A stretch of DNA of 53,448 nt from a virus. Its lineage: Duplodnaviria > Caudoviricetes. A program made the position numbers and the translations under genes. The DNA lies in the IMG/VR virus record IMGVR_UViG_3300031753_000009, positions 1 through 53,448 of that record; one strand, written 5' to 3'. This document shows, piece after piece, positions 7,652 through 51,452 of the stretch. The notes under the pieces were generated by a model, which searched no databases, was not told where the DNA came from, and saw only the letters and a program-made list of their open reading frames with translations. Position 1 is the first letter of the stretch. The number at the start of each line of letters is the position of its first letter.

Positions 7652-9495
7652 TGTTGCTTTAGCTGTCCTTCAACAGCAATCATGCTTTTCATGGAATCAA
7701 TAGCCGCAGCATTGACCTTATCCATCGATTTGGAAAGCGCTTTGACAAACGCAGGACGCGTCAAAACCTGCGCCGCTATGCTAGGACCAACAAAATTCAA
7801 AGCCGCTGCTCCCATCGCCGCTGCCCACTGTCCGGTAACGGCAAGCGTGACGGGCATTGCCGACTGCGCAAACAGCGGTCCCGCTACGTTGCTTTTAGAC
7901 GTACTGGCAAGTTTGTCCCAAACACTCATCTTTTGAGCTGCCAACACCAGATCATCAAACGCTTGTTCCAATGTAGCGTTGCCCGTTGTTTTGAACAACA
8001 TGTTCTTGGCGTCAGGCGATAGGTTTTTATAGTTAGTCAAAAATGTGCTCAATGAAAAACCTTCCATGTCGCCCAACTTGGAAGGATCGCGATTGCCCAT
8101 ATGAGACAGAACAGTTGCAGCGAGATCGCCTTGCTTCGCTTTGCCGAGCGAATGCCACACAGTTTCAAAAGCTTTCAAGTCGGCGGGGGCTTTGATGCCC
8201 GCTTGCCCGACGAGGATATTATAAACTTTCTCGGCAGCAATGGGCATTTCGCGAGTGCCCAATAGTTTCTTAAACGCCGTGCGATAATCATCCATTGCAT
8301 CTTTGTATGTAGCTTTAGCGTAATGCCAATCTTGCAGCACGTCCTTATTGCCTAAGGATTTAACCGCTTCCTCAATATCCTGATCCAACGCACGCTGGAC
8401 TTGGCTGATCTGAGCCGCGTTAACAGATTTGTCGTATCGCGGCGATAACATTTCACCAAACTTAGATTTCAAAGCTTTCATGTCAGCAAAAGACAGCATG
8501 CCTCCCGTCGAATCCAATAAAGTCTTTACTTCCGTCAATTCAGGAGAATCCGTTATGTCTTTGACTTGTTTCGTTGATGCCGCTCCGACAGGTTTCAGAA
8601 CGGCATTGAGCAAATTATTAGATTTGAACATATCGGCCGGACTGAACGCCTGCTGAATCGCGTTCATAATCTTACCGGCTTCGTCTTTGCGTTGTTCCCA
8701 TCCGGTAAGCAGGGTTTCTTGCAGTTCGTGCCCCGTATCGTACTTAGGTTTAGGAGCCCCGAAAGCCGACGCGATCTCTTGCTGCTGCTTTGTAAACTGC
8801 TGAAGATTACCTTCGATAACTTTCTGCATGCGATTGGCGCTGCCGATCGTTTGCGGCAGCACGTTCGCCTCTAACCATTGTGCAGTTTTACCCCCTACGC
8901 CCGTCGTGGCAGCGGTAGGCGTCAATCCAAGTCGCTTGAACGTATCGTATACTTCATCAAATCCAGGACGAGCTTTAGCGGCGGTCAACGTTCCGCCGGA
9001 TAGTCCTCCACCTAGCATTCCACCTGCTAAACGCCCGACAGGGCCGGCCAATTCTGCACCCTTTTCGGCCCCTACGCCGCCGCCCAAAGCTATTCCAGCT
9101 TTGACAAGCAAGGATTCAGGTCCAATCATTGCAGCAGGAACGAACTCAGCAACGCTCTCAGCATATTTGCCTGGAGTTGTTTGCGTTTCGCCCCACGGAC
9201 CGGTGATGGATTGAATCGTCTCTCTTATTTGCTCCGTCGTAGGCGCGAACTGAGCAAGAATGCCCAGCGGTCCTAACGCAGACGTAGCAACCTGTTGTCC
9301 GGATTCTTTTGAAGCACCCAGCCGTTCAGCGACGGCTCCGCCCGCTTCGCGCAGCTCGGCAGGAAGTCCCACCAACCCGGTAACACCTTTTGCCAAACCA
9401 CGCGGAACTGCTTTTGCAACGTCTTCAATTACACCCGGTTCCGCATCGGCAAATGCGTTATCGTGGGCATCGAATTGATCGAACGGATTTGCCAT
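7648..9495 (-). CDS. Putative internal virion/DNA ejection protein
   Basis: 615 aa, helical, NPFDQFD N-terminus, Gly/Ala hydrophobic stretches; third of three genes after the nozzle. Confidence 0.6.
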   Translation of the reverse strand: MANPFDQFDAHDNAFADAEPGVIEDVAKAVPRGLAKGVTGLVGLPAELREAGGAVAERLGASKESGQQVATSALGPLGILAQFAPTTEQIRETIQSITGPWGETQTTPGKYAESVAEFVPAAMIGPESLLVKAGIALGGGVGAEKGAELAGPVGRLAGGMLGGGLSGGTLTAAKARPGFDEVYDTFKRLGLTPTAATTGVGGKTAQWLEANVLPQTIGSANRMQKVIEGNLQQFTKQQQEIASAFGAPKPKYDTGHELQETLLTGWEQRKDEAGKIMNAIQQAFSPADMFKSNNLLNAVLKPVGAASTKQVKDITDSPELTEVKTLLDSTGGMLSFADMKALKSKFGEMLSPRYDKSVNAAQISQVQRALDQDIEEAVKSLGNKDVLQDWHYAKATYKDAMDDYRTAFKKLLGTREMPIAAEKVYNILVGQAGIKAPADLKAFETVWHSLGKAKQGDLAATVLSHMGNRDPSKLGDMEGFSLSTFLTNYKNLSPDAKNMLFKTTGNATLEQAFDDLVLAAQKMSVWDKLASTSKSNVAGPLFAQSAMPVTLAVTGQWAAAMGAAALNFVGPSIAAQVLTRPAFVKALSKSMDKVNAAAIDSMKSMIAVEGQLKQQ

Positions 9496-24874: not shown

Positions 24875-26799
24875 CAGAACCGCCGGCCGCCAGATCGCCA
24901 AGCATTGCGCAAAGCGATACGTGCCTGGCTGGCCCGCTCGCTCCGCTTCGCCGCAAAGAACATATCAAGATGGTTGCGATTAAACAAGGCCACCTGATCG
25001 ACAATCGATTCGCGCCGCTTGGCTTCAACCGATTCCCTGGTCCGCCGCGTCGCAATCAATTCCCGCTGCGCGCGCTCCTCCCAGCAATGTGTAGCAAGCG
25101 CCAACGCCAGCACGCGATCATCCTTCATGGTTCCTTGCGCGCCGATGGAATCACCCTCGCGCGAGATCGACTTCATCTCCCCGATCATGTCCAAAGACCG
25201 GACACGCACGATGCCCCGAGAGACGTGATCCCGCAACCGCTCCAGCAACGTGATCTTAAGACGCGTGTTGGTCAGGAAGTGATAGTTGTAGCCCGAGCCC
25301 ATGGAATCGGGGCGTGTGTAGATGTAGGTGCGCACATTCTGGAAGATGTTGCGCAATCCCTTTTCGTCGATCGCCTCGCGAATGCGCTTGTCGTTCTCGA
25401 TCTGAAATTTTAACGAACGCAGCTCGTTGAACACGGCCGTTCCAGGACCGTTGATTTCCAGGATATAACGAACCTCGTTGTTGTTCTGCCCGTACCAGCC
25501 CATGAGAGCGGCAATTACCCACGCAAGCTGACGCGTGGTAACCAGCGGCCACGCATACTCGGCCACCTGATCGACACCATCGGCATAGCAACGCAAGACC
25601 TGGATCGAGGAGCGATCATTATTCTCGTTCTCGCCGTAAGCCGGATCGACGCCGATCGTGTAACAAGCATCGCTCGGCTCGGGCTCCTCCCACACCTTGA
25701 GTTCGATCGAGCGGGCATTTGCCGCCCGATAAACGCCGAGGGAAGCGAACTCGGAACCGGCCTGGAACATATACGTCTTGAATTTGTCGCTAACGAATTT
25801 GTTAGTTACGTCGGTCAGAACGTCGGCAGAGAAAAACACCGCACCTGTCTGCTGAAAAGCCTCTTCCTCAACCCAGGGTTGTTCTTGGACCCGCGTACTA
25901 CTTCCTTCATATTCCGCATCAGCGTCCCCCTGCTTCTTGGCAACGGGGTTCATCTTGCGCCGAATCCACGCAAGCTGCTCGGGCGTCACTTCATGCCCAT
26001 ACAGTTCCTTAACTTCCCGTATTTTCTTGAACTCCTTTTCGGTCGGAACCTGCTCGCCGTAGAATTTGAAATCCATTTCGGAGCGATCGATCCGCTGGGA
26101 ATCCTTGGACCACCAGCCCAAAAATATGCATTTGCAATGCAGCACATCGAGACGCGCTTCCTTCCACATCTCCCACCATCGATTGAACCCGCGCGCCGTC
26201 GATTCATAAATGTAAAGCCGATCGGGATTCACATCCGATAACGACTGTTGAAAAGCTTCGAGTCCCTCATCGTTGTCCCACGAGCATAATTCCGAGCAAT
26301 GGGCGATAGTGAGCCCGACCGATCGCCCGAGCGTGCCGGAAGTCTTGGACTTCTTGACGCCGGCCGACATGAACAGAACCTTGGAATCATTGCCAAGCGT
26401 CAAACCCGCGCGGTTGTTGCTGACGATGCTTGGAAATTTCAACGAAGCAGGAAGATCGTTGATCATCACTTCAATTTCAGCACGGCTTTCCGACTTGTTG
26501 TTATCCGTGTCGAAAACAATTGCGCCCTTCAAACCGTTATGCACGCCAAGAAGAAAAATGACCAGCGCGCGGATGATCGTCGAAATGCCAAGCTGGCGAG
26601 ACTTGAGCACATAGATTACATGAATGCCTTCCTCAAGCGCATCAAATATTTGAGTAATAGCGCGCCGCTGCCCTTCATAAAGGACTTCGCCAAGACAAAC
26701 ACGTCCATCATCTTTGGAATTGACGTAGCAGCGATTCAAAAAAATGTAAAACGCCTGCTCGACCGCACGACGTTTCTTTGGACTCCACCCAGACATCAC
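24874..26799 (-). CDS. terL: Terminase large subunit
   Basis: Walker A LKSRQLGIST, Walker B AHCSE, coupling motif YESTA, nuclease IGVDPAYG and KDDRV. Confidence 0.92.
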   Translation of the reverse strand: MMSGWSPKKRRAVEQAFYIFLNRCYVNSKDDGRVCLGEVLYEGQRRAITQIFDALEEGIHVIYVLKSRQLGISTIIRALVIFLLGVHNGLKGAIVFDTDNNKSESRAEIEVMINDLPASLKFPSIVSNNRAGLTLGNDSKVLFMSAGVKKSKTSGTLGRSVGLTIAHCSELCSWDNDEGLEAFQQSLSDVNPDRLYIYESTARGFNRWWEMWKEARLDVLHCKCIFLGWWSKDSQRIDRSEMDFKFYGEQVPTEKEFKKIREVKELYGHEVTPEQLAWIRRKMNPVAKKQGDADAEYEGSSTRVQEQPWVEEEAFQQTGAVFFSADVLTDVTNKFVSDKFKTYMFQAGSEFASLGVYRAANARSIELKVWEEPEPSDACYTIGVDPAYGENENNDRSSIQVLRCYADGVDQVAEYAWPLVTTRQLAWVIAALMGWYGQNNNEVRYILEINGPGTAVFNELRSLKFQIENDKRIREAIDEKGLRNIFQNVRTYIYTRPDSMGSGYNYHFLTNTRLKITLLERLRDHVSRGIVRVRSLDMIGEMKSISREGDSIGAQGTMKDDRVLALALATHCWEERAQRELIATRRTRESVEAKRRESIVDQVALFNRNHLDMFFAAKRSERASQARIALRNAWRSGGRRF

Positions 26800-31300: not shown

Positions 31301-31996
31301 TTATGCTGTCACTCTCGCCGCGATCCGCTTCACCTGCGTCACATGAAATGGAACGCCAGTACGCGTTCGATAGCCATTCTGATTGAGGAACCGAGCGATC
31401 TGCCAGGGCGATTGGACCGTCTGAACCATATCCTTGACGAGCGCCACCACTTCCTGTTCCTGCGGATTGACCTCAAGGGTTGCCTCCCGTTCCGAACCGC
31501 GCACAATGTAACCGTACGGCGCTTGCCCGCCAAGATGCCCGCCGCGAGCCCGCTTGGCTTTCATGCCGTCAATGACCCGCTCGTGGATGCGCCCACGCTC
31601 GAACTCGGCCACGGCAGAGAGAATGGTGAAGAAGAGCTTGGCAACCCCGTTATCCGTCACCGGCTCCGCCGCAATGTCGAGCAGAATGACCTTCACGCCC
31701 CGCTTCTGGAGAACCTCGACCGTGGAGAGCGCGTCGGATGCGGAGCGGAACAGACGATCGAGCTTGGCAGCGCATACCACATCTCCAGAATCCGCGTCCG
31801 CCAGGAGTCGAGCGCCTTGCGGTCTTTCGCCGAGCGGGGTGGCGCCGCTAACACCTCGATCAACATACGCTGCAAAGTCGTATGGACTTGCACCGCGGAT
31901 TTGTGCCAACCCCCTGAGCTTGCGTTCCTGCTCCTCAAGCGTCGTCCCATCGGCTTGCTCCTCCGTTGAACAGCGGCAATAACCGAGAATCATCAT
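31301..31996 (-). CDS. Serine recombinase (resolvase family)
   Basis: GYCRCSTEEQ, DRGVSG, KLDRLFRS, AVAEFER, GGQAPYGY. Confidence 0.92.
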   Translation of the reverse strand: MMILGYCRCSTEEQADGTTLEEQERKLRGLAQIRGASPYDFAAYVDRGVSGATPLGERPQGARLLADADSGDVVCAAKLDRLFRSASDALSTVEVLQKRGVKVILLDIAAEPVTDNGVAKLFFTILSAVAEFERGRIHERVIDGMKAKRARGGHLGGQAPYGYIVRGSEREATLEVNPQEQEVVALVKDMVQTVQSPWQIARFLNQNGYRTRTGVPFHVTQVKRIAARVTA

Positions 31997-34876: not shown

Positions 34877-35106
34877 GCTTGTTTCTCGAATACAAATCCA
34901 AGGTAACGAAAATAATTCAACGGGGGGTCCACGCGCCGCGTATGCGTCACGAAGCCAGACATTTTGTGCTCTAAATAAATCAGCAAAGTCTTCCACTCAC
35001 GTTCCGGCAAAACAATTTTAACTTTTTCATGATCGATATTTAGCTGATGCATCGCCTCGGCAATAACATACATACACGCAGGAAATTCGTGATAATTTAT
35101 TGTCAT
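34873..35106 (-). CDS. Hypothetical protein
   Basis: 77 aa, coupled on both sides. Confidence 0.55.
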   Translation of the reverse strand: MTINYHEFPACMYVIAEAMHQLNIDHEKVKIVLPEREWKTLLIYLEHKMSGFVTHTRRVDPPLNYFRYLGFVFEKQA

Positions 35107-35351
35107 AGCATCCCCAGCGCGTGCATGTACTGATCGAGCAATGCCTCGCGCTCCTCCCTAGTTGCCTTGTCCTCACCCCTGATCTTGACAATCAAGCGAA
35201 GAACCGCGGGATGGAAACCAGCGTCCTTGGCTTCTACGTAGATGTCCTTGATGTCGGATTGCAGCTCGCGCTTTTCATCATTCAGCTTCTCGATGCGCTC
35301 GACGAGAGACGCAAGCGCCTGCTTGGCGTTGCCGCCGATATGTTCCATCAC
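35103..35351 (-). CDS. gapR: GapR/DUF2312 nucleoid-associated protein
   Basis: LASLVERIEKLNDEK...DIKDIYVEAKDAGF...LDQYMHALGM. Confidence 0.9.
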   Translation of the reverse strand: MMEHIGGNAKQALASLVERIEKLNDEKRELQSDIKDIYVEAKDAGFHPAVLRLIVKIRGEDKATREEREALLDQYMHALGML

Positions 35352-38477: not shown

Positions 38478-39286
38478 TTGTTGCTTTCCTCGTTTTTGTT
38501 AAGTTCGCACCAACAAGCTGCCGTATGCGGCAGTTCGTTTTTCCAAGCAAGGTCCGAAACAACAAACGGAAAAGGGGTAGGCTTATAAACAAGCATTACA
38601 TATTTCGCCTTACCCTGTCTAACAGAAACAGCATTTTTGACGTTGCCCTGTCTAACAGGAACCGCAAGCGCGTTTTCGAGAGTCCATCCATTTTTCAAAC
38701 GACCATACACAATACTGCGCTTCAAGCCTAATTCCGAAACAACGTCAATAAGCAATTTTCGTTTGCCGTCCAATTCGACATAAACAGAGCGTCGCATATT
38801 ACGCCGCTGCTCTGCCTTGGCCGCCCATCGGCAATTTGTTTTTTCATAATTACCGTTTACATCAATGCGCTCGATTGTATAATCAGGAGCAGGTTTTTTG
38901 CCCATATCTTCCAAAAAATTGGCAAATGATTTCCATCGTTCACATATCGTAATTCCGCGACCGCCGTAATTCTTATAACCTTTATGCTTTTTGTCGGCGC
39001 ATCGCTGCCACATTTTTTCCCAGGAATGGCGCTCCGATCGCGTTAAAGCGGCGGTTGTTGCGGGTCGCCGATAAATCCACCTGTGTCCGTTAACAGCGCA
39101 AGATTTCAAATTTCCCTTTCTCAGCTTATCCCCGCGACAAACAACTTCTTGGCCGCAAGTGCAACGGCATAGCCAGAGAGCGAACGCGCCACCGTTTTTT
39201 CGGGGAAGTGAACCGGCGCGGCGTAACGCGGTCAAATTTCCAAACACTTGGCCGGTTAATTGAATCGCCGATTTACTATAGGCCAT
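38474..39286 (-). CDS. HNH homing endonuclease
   Basis: WLCRCTCG, YKNYGGRGITICERW, TIERIDVNGNYEKTNCRWA. Confidence 0.9.
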   Translation of the reverse strand: MAYSKSAIQLTGQVFGNLTALRRAGSLPRKNGGAFALWLCRCTCGQEVVCRGDKLRKGNLKSCAVNGHRWIYRRPATTAALTRSERHSWEKMWQRCADKKHKGYKNYGGRGITICERWKSFANFLEDMGKKPAPDYTIERIDVNGNYEKTNCRWAAKAEQRRNMRRSVYVELDGKRKLLIDVVSELGLKRSIVYGRLKNGWTLENALAVPVRQGNVKNAVSVRQGKAKYVMLVYKPTPFPFVVSDLAWKNELPHTAACWCELNKNEESNK

Positions 39287-40500: not shown

Positions 40501-40716
40501 TCATCCAAACGGCGTCTTGCGCTCACCTAGCATGCCATCATCATCAGGGTGCGCAATCATCCATTCTTTGCCAGGGACACAATAAATAGGACCGCAAGCA
40601 TCCACCGTGGAATTAAATGTAGCGCCGCACCGCAAGCATTTCCACACATGCCGCGACGACGGTCGGCCGTTGTGCGGCCAATCGCGAACTGCGTCGGACT
40701 TATTCTTGCGCGCCAT
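40501..40716 (-). CDS. Small Cys-containing hypothetical protein
   Basis: GGAGGGAA RBS; WKCLRCG. Confidence 0.55.
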   Translation of the reverse strand: MARKNKSDAVRDWPHNGRPSSRHVWKCLRCGATFNSTVDACGPIYCVPGKEWMIAHPDDDGMLGERKTPFG

Positions 40717-40777
40717 CGTTGATTCCCTCCTAGCCCCATTGCCGCGCCTAACTGTGACGATTTTGCGACGAGTCATA

Positions 40778-41261
40778 CTACAACCAACGATGTTTTAAAG
40801 CGTAACCAGCTCCCGCATACCATGCCCGCCCCGGCTTTGTCCAATCGGGAGGCTCTTTCTTGCCGCCTTGATGCCAATAAAACTTATCGGCTGCATAAAT
40901 CGCTTTGCGTAATGCATTTGCTTTCGATCCTACGCCGTGTTTGGCCTCGCCCCCAAAAAGCACGTAACCGAGCGAATTAACAACATGAAACCCCATGTCC
41001 ATCCCACACCCGCCAACTACAAAACCATCGCCGCGTTTCGCTCGCCTATACCCCAACACGGTTGCTACCGCATGATTGAGATGAATATCGCGTACTTCCT
41101 CCCCCTCCCCCCTCGCATTTCATCAGCACCACGCGAATCGAACGCGACATGCCAGACCGCGCGACATGATCTATAATCATGTAAACCGTATCTCCCGGTT
41201 TCAACCATTTGCGCAATTGTGCGATTTGCTCTTGTTTCTCAGCTTCCTGCTTTTTTGTCAT
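40778..41261 (-). pseudogene. Conserved-type phage gene split by a 1-nt frameshift
   Basis: LKPGDTVY...SGMSR half and GCGMDMGFH half join if one G is removed from the G6 run at 41107-41112. Confidence 0.65.
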
Positions 41262-41371
41262 AATTCCCTCCTAGCACTGTCCTAGCGGTCGCACCGCGCC
41301 GATCAGCATGAACCTCAAGTCTGCCCGACATGCGCCGAGCAACAAAACCAACAGCGTTTGTGCGAGCCATC

Positions 41372-41575
41372 TCACCACACCTCGCGTTCCAACCGCAAAC
41401 CTTCCCGACGCCCTCGCGCCAGCAACGCTTGCATGTGCGAACTATGCCGCGCTTTCCGAGCGCTGCACTCCGTACGCCCGCTCTTGCCTCGATTATCGCG
41501 CCACTCGATATAGAGCGTCTTTTGCCCGCTATCGCTGTAGTGCCGCACGTACATCCGTTTGATTTTGGCGATCAT
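41372..41575 (-). CDS. Small basic hypothetical protein
   Basis: GGAGGGAA RBS before MIAKIK. Confidence 0.55.
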   Translation of the reverse strand: MIAKIKRMYVRHYSDSGQKTLYIEWRDNRGKSGRTECSARKARHSSHMQALLARGRREGLRLEREVW

Positions 41576-41589
41576 CTTTCCCTCCCGAT

Positions 41590-42207
41590 TCACAACCATT
41601 CGGGCAGTGTCGCGGAGCACACAAACCGAATAGGCATAATCACGCCAAACGCGCGCTCATCGCCAAACTGAACAAGCGCAGGCATTTCCTCATCCGCACT
41701 CAAAATGCGCAAAGCATGCGCTTTGCGTCCAACAAGCATCTCCGCAATCTTACTCATGCGAGTAAGCAAGTCGCTCCGAAAAGCCGGATAGCTTTCATGC
41801 TTCTCCGGGATGCTGGGCACTACGCGGCGCCAATCCGGGAACGTCCCGTCAATGAGACACTTTTCCGATATTGCAACCGTACTCGTAACTTCTCGCAAAC
41901 CAGCATCGTTCAGCGCCACCGTCACCACACGCGCCGTGTCATCTTCAATCCGCACCTCGCGAGTTTCACCTTTGCCGGGTTTGCAACTTCTCAACGCTTC
42001 CGGCGTAAGCCGCACAATCGCATTTCGATCCGTCTCGCCAGTCTCATCGCGAATACAGATAAGCGTGCACCAATCAGTCGCAACAAGTAACACTCCGCCT
42101 GCGACACACGACTCAACATGCACGCCGCATAAATAAAAACGAATAGGATCAACAGGCGCCAACATCATGGTGGCAATCCGGTACAAATTCGCATCAAACC
42201 TAGTCAT
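41590..42207 (-). CDS. Beta sliding-clamp-like protein (short phage form)
   Basis: RFYLCGVHV, LVATD, IDGTFPDWRRVVP, VIMPIR. Confidence 0.75.
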   Translation of the reverse strand: MTRFDANLYRIATMMLAPVDPIRFYLCGVHVESCVAGGVLLVATDWCTLICIRDETGETDRNAIVRLTPEALRSCKPGKGETREVRIEDDTARVVTVALNDAGLREVTSTVAISEKCLIDGTFPDWRRVVPSIPEKHESYPAFRSDLLTRMSKIAEMLVGRKAHALRILSADEEMPALVQFGDERAFGVIMPIRFVCSATLPEWL

Positions 42208-42675
42208 TGATTCCCTCCTATTTCGCTCCACGCTCACTTTCTACTCTTTCAATTCGCTCCCGTCAAGCCCCTAATCACGTCTCGCAACGGCGCAAATCGC
42301 CACTTCCTGCCTTCGCTACGAGGCGTCACGCGCACGTCCTTGTGCATGCCGTAGTCGGACACGCACTGGCGCGGCTTGGTGCGCTTCGCCCGTCGATCCA
42401 CGTCGCTCCATTGCATGTTCCACACTCCATTGTTGCAGGTGATGGGTTACACAACTCGTCACAACCTACCACCACCACTAAAGCATTAAAAACAAACACA
42501 AAATGGAAATATGAAGCCGGTGAAAGGTTTTTTGCACATCGCTATGGATTCATGACGTATACATTGCATATTGTAGCCGTATATATGTATTAACAGCCTT
42601 TCGCGTTTTGCCTTTCGATATACTTTTAACCCTTCATACTATTCAACTATAAATAAATATAATAAAAACAATAAC

Positions 42676-45147
42676 TTACGTATTTATGGTTTGGTGGTGG
42701 GTTGAAGGGTTGGCACCCTCTTCGGCATTCCAAACGGGCAAAACATGCCGCCACGGCCATTTTCCGTAATTCTTTTCCCATATTTTACGCGCTTCTGCTA
42801 ATTCAGGAAAGCGCCACATACTGCAATCCTTGGTGTGAATTACGATGCCTCCAAATTGCGCCAAGAACCGCCCTAAGCGTGTCGGGTTAATTTCATGCGA
42901 CTTTGGCGCGAACTCGCGCAGCATGTTCAAAAGCACATAGGCAGCCACGCGCTCCGACTTGTCCTGCGCCTTTTTCAAGGGTAGCGACCCTTGTTGCAGT
43001 ACGTGTTCCCACCATTCCGCTATCGGAGGCAACGATCGCGCCTTTTGCGCCTGCAATCCTGCCGTCTGCGGCACCATGCGGGGATGCCAGCCTCTCAGGT
43101 CACAGCGCAGCAAGTCATAAAGCATGGCCGCGAGGCCGCCATTCTCCATCTCGGCATTGATCGCCTCAAAATAATCGCGGCAACCGATTTTATCCCCGGA
43201 CACGTCGAACACCGCGAATCGCCGCTCATCCGCCGACGCCGGCACAACCCATTCCGAATTGGCAGCCATGATCACATGCAGGCGATTGATCCACGGGATG
43301 GCGTCAATCCCCTTCTGCTCGATCACGATCGTCGGCTCCGTAAGCATCCCCTTGAGTACCGATTCGCCTTGCTTGTCCCCAGCCCAGAAGGCTTCATCGG
43401 CGAACAACAGAAGGCACGAGCGCAAGTGGCCGTTGAACGAGCCGATCAGATGCTTCGGGCTGTACAGTTGCAGCCCGTGCGTCCCGAAGATGCGGCGCAA
43501 TGCGTTGGCGAACGTCCCTTTGCCGCTCCCCTTGCCTCCGCGGAATACCAGGGCTACCTCGGCGCGCTTGCCTGGATTCTGCACCGCCCATGCGGCCCAG
43601 CGCAGGATGTATTCGGCATAGCTGCGCTCCCCGGCGCCCAGCACTTTGCAAATGTGCTCGCGCATCAGGTTCCACTCGCCCGCCATGGGCTGCACCGCGA
43701 GCCCCGTCCAGAGGTTGAGAATCCCCCCTGGCAACGACGGCGGTTGATCGGGGATGAGGTCAATTCCCTCGAACGAGCGCCTATGCGGCCACTTGAGCCA
43801 CTCCCCGCCAAGCGCCGCGCGCTCCGCAGCTCCGGTCTTGGGATTTATCCCTTTGTCCACATAGCGGTTGGAGTAGCGGTCACGGAACGAATTGAATGTC
43901 TGGAACGACGGCACTTTGACTGTCTCATCGATCTTGCTGGCAACCCACGACATGACCAGGCACTTGCCGCCGATATCTCCGATCACCGCATACTTTTCAT
44001 TCAGCTCGATAAGGGGATTGGCCGGCGTGGCAGCGGCCTGGAAACCTGGAAAGGCAAGAGCGTGCCCGTTGATAGCCCGCCCTGGCTCATCCAAGGCGGG
44101 CTGCGCTACAACGGTCTTAGTGGGAGTTGCGGATACATCGGAGCGTCCGCAGTCAATTGGCATCACCTCCTCTCTTATCTCTCGCGGCGCCTTGCTTGGC
44201 GGCAACCATCCGGGCTGCACGCGCCGCGCTTCGTACACCAGGGTTCCGAAGTCGATATCGGCGGGCGGGCTCGATGCGTAATGCGTCCAACGCGCGTGCG
44301 CCGCCCCTTCCCGCCATTTCCTCGATTTCCTCGACCAGGCGTCGAAAAGGTCTGCCCCCTCGGGCAACCCCTCGAGTGCGCGCCAGCACGCCATACCTAT
44401 GCGATTCCAGGCGTCCCAGCCGATATCTTCGTTAGGAATCACATCCAGCGCCGCCGCCACATCGTCCCACGTCACATTGCGTTGATTATCGAGCGATCGT
44501 TGTGCTAGGTTGCGCGAGGAAGCGCGCTCCCCTGCTCGCATCGGGGATGATCCTGGGAACGATCCAGGATTCGTTGTGCGCTTCCCACCTCGCTCCGCAA
44601 ACCACGCAATGAGCCATTCCGGCGCTCTCGCGAGCGTGTTCTGATTCGCCCATCGGTAGCGATTCCCCGACTTGTGCATCGAGGGCGGCAGCACCACGAG
44701 CCCGCCATCGCCCCGGATATCGAGCCCGTTTCCCGAATTGGTCGGCGTCGGCGAATTGACGGCGAAGAGTAGATGCAAGCCACCACCCGATCGGCCGCTC
44801 ACAACCGCCGCCGTTGGTTCCAGCACCTTACCCGCGGCAATCTGCCGCAACAGGTTGACCCCTTCGGCGGTGTCGATGTCCACCACGGCGATGCCTGAGG
44901 CCGCTCCCGTGATCGCGCCGACGTTCGCATTTGGCCATTTTGTCCACCAGGCGACGATCTGTTCGGCGCTGGTTGAGGCCGCGGCGTGCCCTCGCCCTGT
45001 TTTGATTCGCGGATGTTTGCCGGCGGATAGGCAATCTCGTCCACGCCGGCAGGTGCAACACTCATCGGCGACACCGTGCAAGGGCAGCACGCGCCAGCCG
45101 CGCCCGGCATATTGGAGAGCTGCTTCTAATAGTGGGTTATCGGGCAT
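42676..45147 (-). CDS. Primase-polymerase / PriCT-2 / SF3 helicase fusion
   Basis: AGKHP, VVDID, GLHL, DIRGDGG...PPS.H; WNRIGMA (PriCT-2); GGKGSGKGT, LFADE, EQKG. Confidence 0.9.
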   Translation of the reverse strand: MPDNPLLEAALQYAGRGWRVLPLHGVADECCTCRRGRDCLSAGKHPRIKTGRGHAAASTSAEQIVAWWTKWPNANVGAITGAASGIAVVDIDTAEGVNLLRQIAAGKVLEPTAAVVSGRSGGGLHLLFAVNSPTPTNSGNGLDIRGDGGLVVLPPSMHKSGNRYRWANQNTLARAPEWLIAWFAERGGKRTTNPGSFPGSSPMRAGERASSRNLAQRSLDNQRNVTWDDVAAALDVIPNEDIGWDAWNRIGMACWRALEGLPEGADLFDAWSRKSRKWREGAAHARWTHYASSPPADIDFGTLVYEARRVQPGWLPPSKAPREIREEVMPIDCGRSDVSATPTKTVVAQPALDEPGRAINGHALAFPGFQAAATPANPLIELNEKYAVIGDIGGKCLVMSWVASKIDETVKVPSFQTFNSFRDRYSNRYVDKGINPKTGAAERAALGGEWLKWPHRRSFEGIDLIPDQPPSLPGGILNLWTGLAVQPMAGEWNLMREHICKVLGAGERSYAEYILRWAAWAVQNPGKRAEVALVFRGGKGSGKGTFANALRRIFGTHGLQLYSPKHLIGSFNGHLRSCLLLFADEAFWAGDKQGESVLKGMLTEPTIVIEQKGIDAIPWINRLHVIMAANSEWVVPASADERRFAVFDVSGDKIGCRDYFEAINAEMENGGLAAMLYDLLRCDLRGWHPRMVPQTAGLQAQKARSLPPIAEWWEHVLQQGSLPLKKAQDKSERVAAYVLLNMLREFAPKSHEINPTRLGRFLAQFGGIVIHTKDCSMWRFPELAEARKIWEKNYGKWPWRHVLPVWNAEEGANPSTHHQTINT

Positions 45148-45161
45148 GATCTCCCCGCCGG

Positions 45162-45190
45162 TTGACAAGGAGGCACTGGTTCCCTATAGT
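45162..45190 (+). promoter_or_regulatory. Near-consensus sigma70 promoter
   Basis: TTGACA (45162-45167), 17 nt, TATAGT (45185-45190). Confidence 0.8.
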
Positions 45191-45196
45191 GGGAAT

Positions 45197-45273
45197 CAGT
45201 CGCGGGCGGTCCCCTCCCTCCATCGCGACTTCGACACCTCCAAGACCCTCATCTCCCCGATGAGGGTCTTTTT
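45197..45273 (+). ncRNA. Candidate ~77-nt small RNA with two hairpins and C-rich loops
   Basis: Bounded by the promoter and a 12-bp-stem terminator (45242-45273); first stem AGTCGCG/CGCGACT; 5' end inferred. Confidence 0.65.
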
Positions 45274-45536
45274 GTAGTGTCCGGTATTGTTCCTGCGGCG
45301 TCAATGATCGTCGTTTGTAACAAACTGACATATTATGTGATAAAATATCTCACGGGCTGGGCGCTACTCCAGCTCCCGCCTCTGCATCCGTAATTGATAG
45401 GCGTGTGCACTCCACTCAATTACAAAGCCGCGTGTCTAGCTTTCCACGCCGCCGTGAGACAGGGACTTATTAGCACAGAAAGACCGTGTTTGCCCATCTG
45501 TTTTACTCTGTAACAATTCGTGATTGGATTATTTGA

Positions 45537-45902
45537 TTGTTTCAATATAGGTACGGTGTCAGCGCAAGAACTGGCTCCATGGCATATCCATCGATCACTG
45601 AGCGCATTACCGACGCCCTGGCGGGCAAGGTCTTGGTTGACATCGGGCAATTCAACCCGGCAGATCGTCGCCGACTTGATAGGGAAGTCCGCGCCGGCCG
45701 CCTCGCAAAATGGCGGGGACATTGGTATCCGGATGCTGGCGCGCCGTGGGGTATTGGTCCGCTCAAAATGTGCTGGGGCCTACCCGAGATTCGCGATTAT
45801 CATGTCAACTTTACGCTAAGGACTGAGGGGAAAAATGAAAGATCATCGTTCGATAGCCGCTCGCGCCCTTCGAAAAGGGGACAAAGTGATTCATCCCGAT
45901 GA
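45537..45902 (+). CDS. Hypothetical protein (start uncertain)
   Basis: First ORF of the plus-strand block. Confidence 0.45.
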   Translation: MFQYRYGVSARTGSMAYPSITERITDALAGKVLVDIGQFNPADRRRLDREVRAGRLAKWRGHWYPDAGAPWGIGPLKMCWGLPEIRDYHVNFTLRTEGKNERSSFDSRSRPSKRGQSDSSR

Positions 45903-46026
45903 AGGTGAGTGCATCGTTACAAAAATAAGAAAGTCGGACGGAGCCGTTTTTATTCGCACTGCGGATGGACTCGAAGGAACGTGCAGCGCAGAAATATTAA
46001 AATGGGCAAATGGAGGGGAAAAATGA
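45835..46026 (+). CDS. Small beta-barrel-like hypothetical protein
   Basis: GAGGGGG RBS; LRKGDKVIHP. Confidence 0.6.
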   Translation: MKDHRSIAARALRKGDKVIHPDEGECIVTKIRKSDGAVFIRTADGLEGTCSAEILKWANGGEK

Positions 46027-49015: not shown

Positions 49016-49522
49016 ATGCGCCCTGTCGTAATCGACTTCGAGACGTATTTCGCAGACGACTTCACGCTGTCCAAAATGTCAACGGAAGCGTACATCCGCG
49101 ATCCGCGCTTCCAGGCTCACGGCGCCGCGATCAAATGGAGCGTCAACCATGCCGCCAAGTGGTATGACGGGCGGCAGCTTCGGCACGTCCTGGCGAACGA
49201 GGATTGGTCTGACGTTTTTCTTATTGCTTGGCACGCGCAATTCGACGGACTGATTCTCTCCCATCATTACGGAGTGAAACCGGCGATGTGGGGCTGCCCC
49301 ATGTCAATGGCGCGCTTGCTTCATCCTCCGCACGGCTCCGTCTCTTTGGACAATATTCGCAAATTATATGGCATGCCGGCGAAGACGACGCCGTACAATC
49401 TGTTCAAGAACAAGCGATGGGAGGACATGACGCCCGACGTGCAGCGCCAGGTTGCCGAGGGGGCGGAAGATGAAGTAAAATCGATTTGGTTGTTGTTTCA
49501 GAAGTTCATGAGGGAAGGTTGA
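49016..49522 (+). CDS. DNA polymerase A, 3'-5' exonuclease part
   Basis: ExoI VIDFET, ExoII AWHAQFD. Confidence 0.8.
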   Translation: MRPVVIDFETYFADDFTLSKMSTEAYIRDPRFQAHGAAIKWSVNHAAKWYDGRQLRHVLANEDWSDVFLIAWHAQFDGLILSHHYGVKPAMWGCPMSMARLLHPPHGSVSLDNIRKLYGMPAKTTPYNLFKNKRWEDMTPDVQRQVAEGAEDEVKSIWLLFQKFMREG

Positions 49523-49527
49523 ATAAC

Positions 49528-50079
49528 ATGGAACTCCCCAAATACGGGGTTATTTATGCTGATCCTCCTTGGGCTTATGGAGATAAAGGATTCGGCAAGC
49601 GACCTGAACAAGCCGAAAGCGGTTCGTTTGCGCCAGAAGCGGGCCGCTATAACACCATGACTATTGCAGACATCGCGGCTATGCCGGTATATAAAATTGC
49701 TGATGAAAATTGTGCTTTACTGCTTTGGGCAACGTCGCCGCTGCTTCCAGAAGCGTTGCACGTAATTTCCTCGTGGAAATTTAAGTTCAAAACCGTTGCT
49801 TTTTGCTGGTCAAAAATAACTTCGACAGGAAAGGAAGTTGCAAATTTGGGGCAATGGACTATGGGCAACGTAGAATTATGTTTGCTCGCGACAAAAGGAT
49901 CGCCAAAACGGTTGCGGCGCGATGTAAGACAATTGGTCGTAGACACGCGCACCGAGCACAGTAAAAAACCCGAAGAAGTGCGAACTAGAATCGAAGCTAT
50001 TTTTGGAAACGTGCGAAAAATCGAACTGTTTGCGCGCACGCGCGCTGCTGGATGGGATTCGTGGGGCAATCAATTATGA
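49528..50079 (+). CDS. MT-A70 family adenine methyltransferase
   Basis: IYADPPW, LLLWAT, HSKKPEE, IELFAR, GWDSWGNQ. Confidence 0.92.
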   Translation: MELPKYGVIYADPPWAYGDKGFGKRPEQAESGSFAPEAGRYNTMTIADIAAMPVYKIADENCALLLWATSPLLPEALHVISSWKFKFKTVAFCWSKITSTGKEVANLGQWTMGNVELCLLATKGSPKRLRRDVRQLVVDTRTEHSKKPEEVRTRIEAIFGNVRKIELFARTRAAGWDSWGNQL

Positions 50080-51452
50080 CCTTCCCCATCGAAGAACTGG
50101 AAATCATAGATTCCGTCGTCCAGATGTTCACCAATCCCGTGCTCCGCGCCGACGTGGATTTGCTCGGGAAGGTGTGGACGACCGAGGCGACCAAAAAGCA
50201 AGAGCGCATGACGGCGCTCGGCATCACCGAGGCCGACGTGCAATCCGCTGACAAATTCCAGGCGTTGCTTGAAGCCGAAGGTGTTGAGATCGAGTACAAA
50301 AAGGGCAAGAACGGCGACATTCCCGCCTTTGCCAAGAACGATGAGTTCATGCAACGTTTGTTGGAGGACGGCGATGAGCGAATCAGGACGCTTGCCGAGG
50401 CGCGCATCGGTGCCAAATCGACGCTGTTACAGACGCGCGCCGAGACGCTGGGCTGGATGGCAAGTCGGGGACCTTTGTGCGTTTATCTGCGCTACTGCGG
50501 AGCTGCTACCTTGCGCCCAACGGGCGGCGATGGCGCGAACTGGCTTAATTTCAAACGTGGTTCAGATATCCGACGTTCGATTCTGGCGCCGGAAGGCTAC
50601 CTCCTAGCTCCGATCGATGCTTCCCAGATCGAGTTTCGCGTCGCGATGTACCTCGCCGGTCAGGACGATGTGCTCGATCTGTTGCGCAATGGAGGTGATC
50701 CGTACATTGGTATCGCTTCTGAATTTTACGGAGAGCAAATATACAAACCTCAAAAAGACGACCCTCGCAAGCTGGAAATGGAACAAAAAAGGGGAACTGG
50801 CAAAGTTGCCCAATTGCAATGCCAATACGGTTCGTCAGGCAAGTCTTTTCGCCGTGCAGTTCGTTCAGGAGCGTATGGTCCGCCGGTCGATATGCCTATT
50901 GAAGATGCTAACCGCTTTGTAAAGCTGTATCGTGATACGCATCTCAAAGTGTGCGCCCGTCCAGGCGGCTATTGGTCCCAATGCGACCGCATGATTGCGC
51001 GCCTTGCCGGCGGGCCGCCTGTGGAATGGGGACCGCTGACCGTCAAGGATCACAGAATTTACTTGCCAAACGGCACCTTCATGAATTATGAAAGTTTGGA
51101 ATTTCATCATCCTGGTGCGGACGAGGAAGCAAGGGATTTCGAGCGCAACGGCTACTGGCGCGTGCGCACCAGGCAAGGATGGAAAAAACTGTGGGGATCG
51201 AAGCTTACCCAGAATATCTGCGAGGCGGTCAGCCGCGTCATCGTCAGTCAGGCGATGATTCGCATCAAGCGGCAGCATGGCATCCGAACGTTGAACTGGC
51301 CGTATGACGAGCTGCTTCTTCTTGTTCCCGATGATTCGAAAGCAGAGGAAGTTGTGAAAGCATGCCGGCAGGAATTGTGCAGGACGCCCGACTGGCTCCC
51401 CGGCATTCCGCTAGATGCTGAGGCAACGATCGGTAAGAGGTATAGTAAATAA
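50076..51452 (+). CDS. DNA polymerase A, polymerase part
   Basis: Motif A DASQIEFR, motif B RGTGKVAQLQCQYG, motif C-like WPYDE, LPGIPLDAE. Confidence 0.88.
   Translation: MTFPIEELEIIDSVVQMFTNPVLRADVDLLGKVWTTEATKKQERMTALGITEADVQSADKFQALLEAEGVEIEYKKGKNGDIPAFAKNDEFMQRLLEDGDERIRTLAEARIGAKSTLLQTRAETLGWMASRGPLCVYLRYCGAATLRPTGGDGANWLNFKRGSDIRRSILAPEGYLLAPIDASQIEFRVAMYLAGQDDVLDLLRNGGDPYIGIASEFYGEQIYKPQKDDPRKLEMEQKRGTGKVAQLQCQYGSSGKSFRRAVRSGAYGPPVDMPIEDANRFVKLYRDTHLKVCARPGGYWSQCDRMIARLAGGPPVEWGPLTVKDHRIYLPNGTFMNYESLEFHHPGADEEARDFERNGYWRVRTRQGWKKLWGSKLTQNICEAVSRVIVSQAMIRIKRQHGIRTLNWPYDELLLLVPDDSKAEEVVKACRQELCRTPDWLPGIPLDAEATIGKRYSK

Follow-up and report, generated by a model that had tools for sequence, protein, structure and literature searches.

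A predicted phage small RNA gene kept opposite the primase leader, a candidate counter-transcribed regulator of primase

The DNA analysed here, called the window, is 53,448 bp long and is one entire IMG/VR virus record (IMGVR_UViG_3300031753_000009; completeness estimate 83%). Immediately upstream of its primase-helicase gene, on the opposite strand, lies a compact unit of promoter, hairpin and terminator, and positions 45197-45275 (+) are very probably a genuine, independently transcribed phage small RNA gene. We hold, with moderate confidence, that its product is a counter-transcribed RNA (ctRNA) complementary to the primase leader that represses primase. The decisive evidence for this reading, drawn from sequence comparison, comes from related phages. 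The features of the unit in the window are as follows.

45162-45275 (+): the whole unit, promoter through terminator
45162-45167 (+): small-RNA -35 hexamer TTGACA, its first base 15 nt from the primase ATG
45185-45190 (+): small-RNA -10 hexamer TATAGT, after a 17-nt spacer from the -35
45180-45195 (no strand): TTCCC-N6-GGGAA inverted repeat around the -10 hexamer, statistically unremarkable
45197-45275 (+): predicted small RNA, about 77-79 nt, with the start placed from the -10 and the end from the T-run
45198-45230 (+): hairpin 1, with a 7-bp outer stem AGUCGCG/CGCGACU and a loop region at 45205-45223
45210-45221 (+): loop 1 motif UCCCCUCCCUCC, in the hairpin 1 loop region
45235-45241 (+): single-stranded linker CACCUCC
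45242-45273 (+): intrinsic terminator, comprising a hairpin at 45242-45270 with a 12-bp stem and T5 at 45269-45273
45254-45258 (+): terminator loop (loop 2) UCCCC, 5 nt

An earlier reading made from the letters of the window, referred to below as the sequence-only reading, had described a TTGACA-17-TATAGT promoter followed by an RNA of about 77 nt ending in a 12-bp hairpin plus T5, with a C-rich loop 1, the linker CACCUCC and loop 2 UCCCC; all of these are present, and the C-rich stretches lie in unpaired regions. The promoter matches the consensus at 11 of 12 positions, and the whole window holds only one other such site, at 38856 (+). CTATAG (45184-45189) agrees at five of six positions with CTATAT, the alphaproteobacterial signature given in PMC10746234. 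Two hairpins form in the predicted fold of the RNA (45197-45275), whose energy is -33.9 kcal/mol (z = -4.26); one of 200 shuffled sequences was as stable. Under a stricter scan its terminator is one of two strong plus-strand terminators in 53 kb. Promoter and strong terminator stand on the same strand, 50 nt apart, within the 430-bp divergent intergenic region that separates primase from the rightward genes. The TTCCC/GGGAA palindrome over the -10 was also correctly seen but carries no significance: the exact form occurs once, and with at most one mismatch there are four copies against 1.59 expected, a number reached in 10 of 100 shuffles.

On the other strand, the primase gene and the signals that face or follow the small RNA gene are arranged as follows.

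42676-45147 (-): primase-helicase gene (Prim-Pol, PriCT_2 and DUF5906/VapE-like domains)
45145-45157 (-): primase start codon (45147-45145) and Shine-Dalgarno sequence CGGGGAG (45157-45151)
45151-45172 (-): primase-message hairpin pairing CUCCUUGUC with the Shine-Dalgarno sequence, -13.2 kcal/mol
45137-45223 (-): 28-codon upstream reading frame in the leader, its stop 8 nt after the A of the primase ATG
45276-45304 (-): candidate leftward primase promoter, with -35 TTGACG at 45304-45299, a 17-nt spacer and a weak -10 GACACT at 45281-45276
45317-45346 (+): separate candidate promoter of the rightward genes, GTAACA-18-TAAAAT with TG before it, 9/12

The leftward promoter is predicted to start transcription near 45269, giving a primase leader of about 122 nt in the window, and no leftward promoter-like site scoring at least 7.5 in the window would start below 45197.

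A search with the polymerase gene turned up related phages, on contigs of about 57-64 kb, that share 54-69% identity and the gene order of the window. Six of these loci reach the primase junction (L167, L168, L170, L169, L172 and L175) and three do not (L171, L173 and L174). Because L168 and L170 are near-identical at the junction, the seven loci that include the window count as six lineages. The promoter-hairpin-terminator unit occurs in the same place and orientation in 6/6 relatives reaching the junction. All seven loci, window included, have a strong plus-strand terminator no more than 220 nt past the start of primase, although such terminators number only one or two per locus, in 9-53 kb. 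Between primase start and terminator there is a promoter-like site matching 7-9 of 12 positions in the five relative loci scored, and in L175 a site was recognised by eye (TTGCCT-17-TATCTA). The -35 hexamer of the relatives stands 10-15 nt from the primase start codon, or 8-11 nt from the start of a leader frame. Past the T-run, at a distance of 25-65 nt, the plus strand reads CGTCAA (minus-strand TTGACG) in all six loci scanned and in L175 too (7/7 with the window). This conserved TTGACG beyond the terminator predicts, from predicted starts, full overlap of small RNA and primase message; the predicted primase leaders, 122-176 nt long, hold the entire small-RNA complement. The proposal that a discrete small RNA is counter-transcribed to the primase leader thus gained support from the unit in 6/6 relatives and from TTGACG at 7/7 loci.

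A 5' hairpin with a UCCCC-type apical loop is retained, the loop being UCCCCC, UCCCCU or UUCCCU in the relatives and UCCCCUC in the window. When hairpin 1 of L168/L170 is compared with that of L169, both sides have changed yet remain paired in 6 of 12 pairs; six compensatory changes were reached by only 8 of 500 shuffles, and slid controls gave 0-2. MAFFT lines up a core GCGGnCGnT...TCCCC. These observations bear on the possibility that the facing promoters, about 100 bp apart, act by transcriptional interference only, with polymerases colliding or sitting and the RNA product idle. The convergent geometry is kept in all lineages, and in the window the rightward promoter is much stronger (11/12 against a leftward -10 at 3/6), as such a mechanism would have it. 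However, interference needs no conserved fold, and here the pairing of hairpin 1 survives six double changes and the UCCCC-type loop is retained; moreover, a terminator placed right before the opposing promoter limits collisions there rather than promoting them. We therefore regard interference by itself as unlikely.

In some lineages the loop has a plausible partner at the start of primase. Over 7 nt, CCCCUUG of the loop is complementary to the Shine-Dalgarno sequence CAAGGGG, and a match as good occurs in only 1.1-1.6% of background windows. CAAGGGG drives primase in L168/L170 and, in L169, a 20-codon upstream frame overlapping the primase start. Matches between loop and Shine-Dalgarno sequence run to 7 nt in L168/L170 and L169 and to 9 nt in the window. 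In five relatives CCCC stands directly ahead of the small-RNA -35 (CCCCTTG), and the opposite strand there is the CAAGGGG Shine-Dalgarno sequence of primase or of the leader frame (compare 45157-45167 in the window). Since CCCCTTG reads CAAGGGG on the other strand, promoter and ribosome-binding site share base pairs.

The 28-codon frame of the window has its AUG and a GGAGG within the small-RNA complement, and upstream frames ending 8-10 nt after the primase start occur in three of five lineages (window, L169 and L172; L175 is outside this set), too few for a tap-like leader frame to be accepted as a conserved feature. The primase leader folds stably on the minus strand, with the Shine-Dalgarno sequence predicted to be paired (probability P about 1.0). 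These properties raise the alternative that function lies on the minus strand, a G-rich leader with GGA loops, upstream frame and Shine-Dalgarno hairpin controlling primase translation alone or via a host protein, and that the plus-strand signals are by-products. Pairing of the Shine-Dalgarno sequence is, however, common in this phage: P is at least 0.9 in 7 of the 28 genes scored, so the hairpin of primase is not distinctive, and its sequestration was discarded as a special mark of the gene. A minus-strand function also leaves unexplained the U-tract terminator, which would work on the plus strand only and is kept at 7/7 loci, together with the promoter-like sites, and we consider it very unlikely.

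The unit points at the rightward genes, and it could instead be a terminated leader or an insulator: either the true early rightward promoter with an attenuator under antitermination, or a terminator that keeps stray antisense transcription out of the rightward operon. The lambda PR'-tR' region is a parallel for such antitermination. In the window the other rightward candidate is indeed weaker (9/12) and lies 233 nt ahead of the first rightward gene. Against this, each of the six loci scored has, ahead of its first rightward gene, a separate promoter-like site (7-9 of 12), which in L167, L168, L169 and L172 is 22-27 nt from the start codon; the 12-bp stem with U5 looks efficient; and no antiterminator was identified among the window genes scanned. 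A further objection comes from a comparable cassette that has no co-oriented gene downstream (see below), and we judge a leader or insulator decidedly improbable.

That cassette was found among distant primase homologues. Primase-based searches returned distant relatives only (at most 44% identity), and L004/L005 and L006 gave the best full-length matches, with 37-40% identity to the window protein and 82% to each other. Among 26 loci, an antisense promoter-terminator cassette just upstream of primase occurs in L004, L005 and L006 only, and a sense-strand cassette in none (0/26); the background rate of such cassettes is 0.013 per 350 nt. The primases of L004-L006 sit in islands of integrase, excisionase-like and primase genes (for example L006 499-5193), and the L005 island adjoins a tRNA-like fragment (1302-1364). 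The cassettes of L005 and L006 are about 50-60 nt long, have a single hairpin, lie between the excisionase-like gene and primase, and are retained despite diverged spacer DNA. Because the genes upstream run the same way as primase, with no co-oriented gene downstream of the cassette, the L005/L006 cassette cannot be the leader of a divergent operon. Rfam gave nothing at the L005/L006 cassette, and the L006 primase found one match in 401 gammaproteobacterial genomes (30% identity). The L004-L006 cassette is an unrelated parallel, and as such we count it in favour of a primase countertranscript.

Searching directly for copies of the window RNA yielded nothing credible. Of the exact and motif DNA scans, one gave no matches, those of viral contigs two of low complexity and those of genome contigs 99. 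When these 99 were scored with a covariance model built on the window RNA, none was credible, the best reaching 19.8 bits. That model found nothing credible beyond its own locus in the window and 29 primase loci, and in 151 alphaproteobacterial genomes it gave eight weak matches (E <= 0.1), none convincing; no Rfam family was found at those loci (E <= 0.01).

Several results weigh against a primase countertranscript. The antisense cassette is absent upstream of primase homologues in the 23 other metagenome loci and in 10 alphaproteobacterial genome loci. The transcription starts of both RNAs are predicted only, and the leftward -10 elements are poor (GACACT, GCAAGT, CAGTCT, CAACCA). Complementarity between loop and Shine-Dalgarno sequence is lacking in L167 and L172, and the leader frame is not conserved, two of five lineages being without one. 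RNAalifold found no consensus pairs on the MAFFT alignment; the window-RNA model scored no better than 10.7 bits (E 1.6), for the L170 unit, and failed to match any other relative, and a model built on hairpin 1 of the relatives recovered neither the hairpin of the window (E <= 10) nor that of L175 (E <= 0.05). As the covariance models do not link the copies, the family rests on position, architecture and a short motif. When the small-RNA target was blocked in silico, pairing of the primase Shine-Dalgarno sequence was unchanged (0.99-1.0 both ways), which leaves opening or closing of that sequence by leader refolding unsupported. Finally, a 9-nt match such as the one with the ribosome-binding site of primase is no more than chance would give across the genome. 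The repeat behind it, stressed in the sequence-only reading, is exact: the 9-mer ATCTCCCCG occurs at 45149 and 45251. It also occurs at 25175, a 9-mer repeat within 800 nt is expected by chance, and a second one is present in the same interval. The best score of the small RNA in the window is 26, against 26.7 +/- 2.2 for shuffled RNA (40 shuffles), and neither the 9-nt match nor a 13-nt match at 25173 was accepted as a specific target.

The unpaired parts of the small RNA are G-poor and hold UCCCCUCCCUCC, CACCUCC and UCCCC. Segments of 80 nt with at least three C-rich clusters are confined to three places per strand (95 and 79 of 53,368 segments). Five GGAGGGA(A) sites are complementary to UCCCUCC over 7 nt, and GGAGGGGA preceding the ATG at 46023 is complementary to UCCCCUCC over 8 nt. 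The four ribosome-binding sites named earlier as matches to UCCCUCC are there as GGAGGGAA sites on the minus strand (40730, 41271, 41585 and 42218), joined by a fifth on the plus strand (47413), and every one lies 5-9 nt ahead of an ATG. An extended ribosome-binding site, (A)GGAGGGAA or GGAGGGGA, is common to early genes at 40716-42218 (-) and at 46012 and 47413 (+). A G follows GGAGG at 9 of 19 ribosome-binding-site-like positions and at 14 of 71 positions elsewhere.

From these motifs it could be argued that the RNA is mainly a trans-acting anti-Shine-Dalgarno regulator of phage early or host messages, of the ar14/NfeR1, cuckoo/CcsR or AbcR-like kind, and that its position beside primase is incidental. 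The three G-poor, unpaired C-rich motifs, the matches and the G enrichment just described, a weak full-length match to ar14 and a probably alphaproteobacterial host all fit this. The three anti-Shine-Dalgarno motifs are, however, peculiar to the window copy, the relatives having one short C-rich loop of the UCCCC type. Position and orientation to primase are conserved, which would be unexpected for a free-standing trans regulator, and anti-Shine-Dalgarno sequences match many ribosome-binding sites anyway, with no complementarity in the window exceeding that of shuffles. A chiefly trans-acting RNA is thus quite unlikely.

Membership of a known RNA family, which the sequence-only reading had suggested be sought among ctRNA and cuckoo-type models, was not borne out. 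Rfam at gathering scores gave no match in the whole window, and its ctRNA models gave none at E <= 10 in 44900-45700. The ar14 model (NfeR1, RF02344) aligns over 45192-45274 with 23.5 bits (E 0.037 in a search of 801 nt), below its threshold of 58.8, with the middle hairpin missing and the middle 36 model positions replaced by 3 nt; RF02344 gave no match in the search of the window's own record (0/1). The only other Rfam models at E <= 10 were cow-rumen-1 and two microRNA models. According to PMC10746234, ar14 has three hairpins, each with an identical unpaired CCUCCUCCC. The window RNA was rejected as a member on its sub-threshold score, its two hairpins rather than three and the absence of CCUCCUCCC. 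Cuckoo RNAs (RSs0680/CcsR) have, according to PMC4615179, 2-4 adjacent hairpins of 24-50 nt whose loops of 9-27 nt carry CCUCCUCCC. Here the hairpin count (two) and the size of loop 1 fit, but the window RNA carries CCUCCCUCC instead and its loop 2 is only 5 nt long, and this assignment was rejected as well. Nor does the window RNA share the occurrence of cuckoo genes on chromosomes and plasmids in conserved neighbourhoods, its gene being phage-borne and without a convincing match in the 151 alphaproteobacterial genomes. The window RNA resembles ar14 and cuckoo in its adjacent hairpins, unpaired C-rich anti-Shine-Dalgarno motifs, intrinsic terminator and probably the same host clade; unlike them, it is phage-borne and position-locked to primase.

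Plasmid countertranscripts are closer in arrangement. An own promoter opposite the initiator leader, together with an intrinsic terminator, as expected of a plasmid-type ctRNA, is found in silico at 7/7 loci. PMC5717011 describes CopA of R1 (IncFII) as a short RNA opposite the leader of the initiator gene, upstream of the ribosome-binding site, as here, and the translation of the R1 initiator as coupled to a small leader frame (copB-tap-repA); in the window, L169 and L172 the counterpart of that frame would be the leader frame whose stop lies 8-10 nt past the start of primase. The same source describes RNAII of pMV158 (copG-repB), which likewise is a small RNA with a terminator hairpin, opposite the region before the initiator and downstream of a small regulator gene, and to which the L005/L006 cassettes come closest. 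Unlike CopA, the window RNA has no sequence or Rfam relation to that system, its target is a phage Prim-Pol/helicase and not RepA, and its repression is predicted. Compared with RNAII, replicon type and protein family differ, and the window RNA has two hairpins. These differences leave the logic, which would be that of plasmid ctRNAs setting the level of a replication initiator. In repABC replicons of alphaproteobacteria an antisense RNA before the replication gene embodies the same idea. Phages also make short RNAs with terminators that pair with a phage message (lambda OOP, P22 sar, P1/P7 c4, P4 CI), and these act on cII, ant or the immunity circuit and are not known to target a primase leader. 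No description of a phage primase countertranscript was found in a limited search of the literature.

From the signals and fold of the unit, and from the conserved architecture and compensatory changes of the relatives, we infer the transcription starts, RNA pairing and repression set out here. A host sigma-70-type promoter would start the small RNA 50 nt from the primase start codon and transcribe away from primase, and the strong intrinsic terminator would end it about 77 nt later. The primase message would start at the weak leftward promoter, whose -35 TTGACG lies just beyond the small-RNA terminator; with its start there, the primase leader would contain a perfect complement of the small RNA, from -128 to -50. 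The two RNAs would meet via complementary C-rich and G-rich loops, form a duplex and lower primase output. This may happen because ribosome entry is blocked at the leader frame and/or at the GGGG-type Shine-Dalgarno sequence, or the duplex may expose the leader to a double-strand-specific ribonuclease, alone or together with ribosome blocking.

An extension, which we put forward tentatively and think unlikely, is that the RNA works in two modes. It would be a primase countertranscript throughout the group, to which the lineage of the window would have added three anti-Shine-Dalgarno motifs that converge on the ar14/cuckoo design of the host. While accumulating, the RNA would then also turn off early genes with GGAGGGA ribosome-binding sites on either arm, might draw on the host regulon of such RNAs, and would thereby time the early-to-late switch. 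A lysogeny switch, as had also been envisaged, is without support, the only recombinase being a 231-aa resolvase-type protein.

In the window, leftward genes run from 45147 down to position 1 and include primase-helicase, RusA-like, methylase, resolvase-type recombinase, capsid and tail genes, and rightward genes begin at about 45579, with DNA polymerase A among them. The cumulative GC skew turns at 44-46 kb. There was no DNA match to a collection of cultured phages, and the nearest cultured relatives of primase and polymerase have about 30-35% identity (polymerase about 30%). A GapR-like DNA-binding gene is present at 35103-35348 (-) (PF10073, 87 bits), and among 14 control genomes the GapR family matches Caulobacter alone, so the host is probably an alphaproteobacterium. 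The sole recombinase seen, a serine recombinase of the resolvase/invertase type, is encoded at 31301-31996 (-). The window frames scanned included neither a tyrosine integrase nor a partition gene.

The polymerase A gene of the window is split (49016-49522 and 50052-51452), with an MT-A70 methyltransferase frame (49486-50079) in between; in relatives the two parts adjoin, for example at 8524-9024 and 9001-10395 in L167. An AT-rich gap of about 430 nt (42240-42680), 3' of the primase stop, holds short frames only, without family matches, and may serve as a further regulatory region at the head of the RusA-like gene block. A weaker second promoter-terminator pair is present at 41149-41233 (+), with ATGCCA-17-TATAAT followed by a 6-bp hairpin and a T-rich tail, antisense to a 71-codon gene starting at 41261.

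Antisense control of a replication initiator is textbook knowledge for plasmids. The unit described here persists in six lineages of uncultivated phages of about 55-63 kb, whose nearest cultured polymerase relatives share only about 30% identity, and the nearest primase homologues, in integrative islands, are preceded by a look-alike cassette. If the proposed repression is confirmed, phages and satellites would meter their primase-helicase with an RNA, using a compact module of about 160 bp that consists of two facing promoters, one terminator and one leader. The copy in the window suggests a route by which an RNA that is antisense in cis can become an anti-Shine-Dalgarno regulator of multiple targets.

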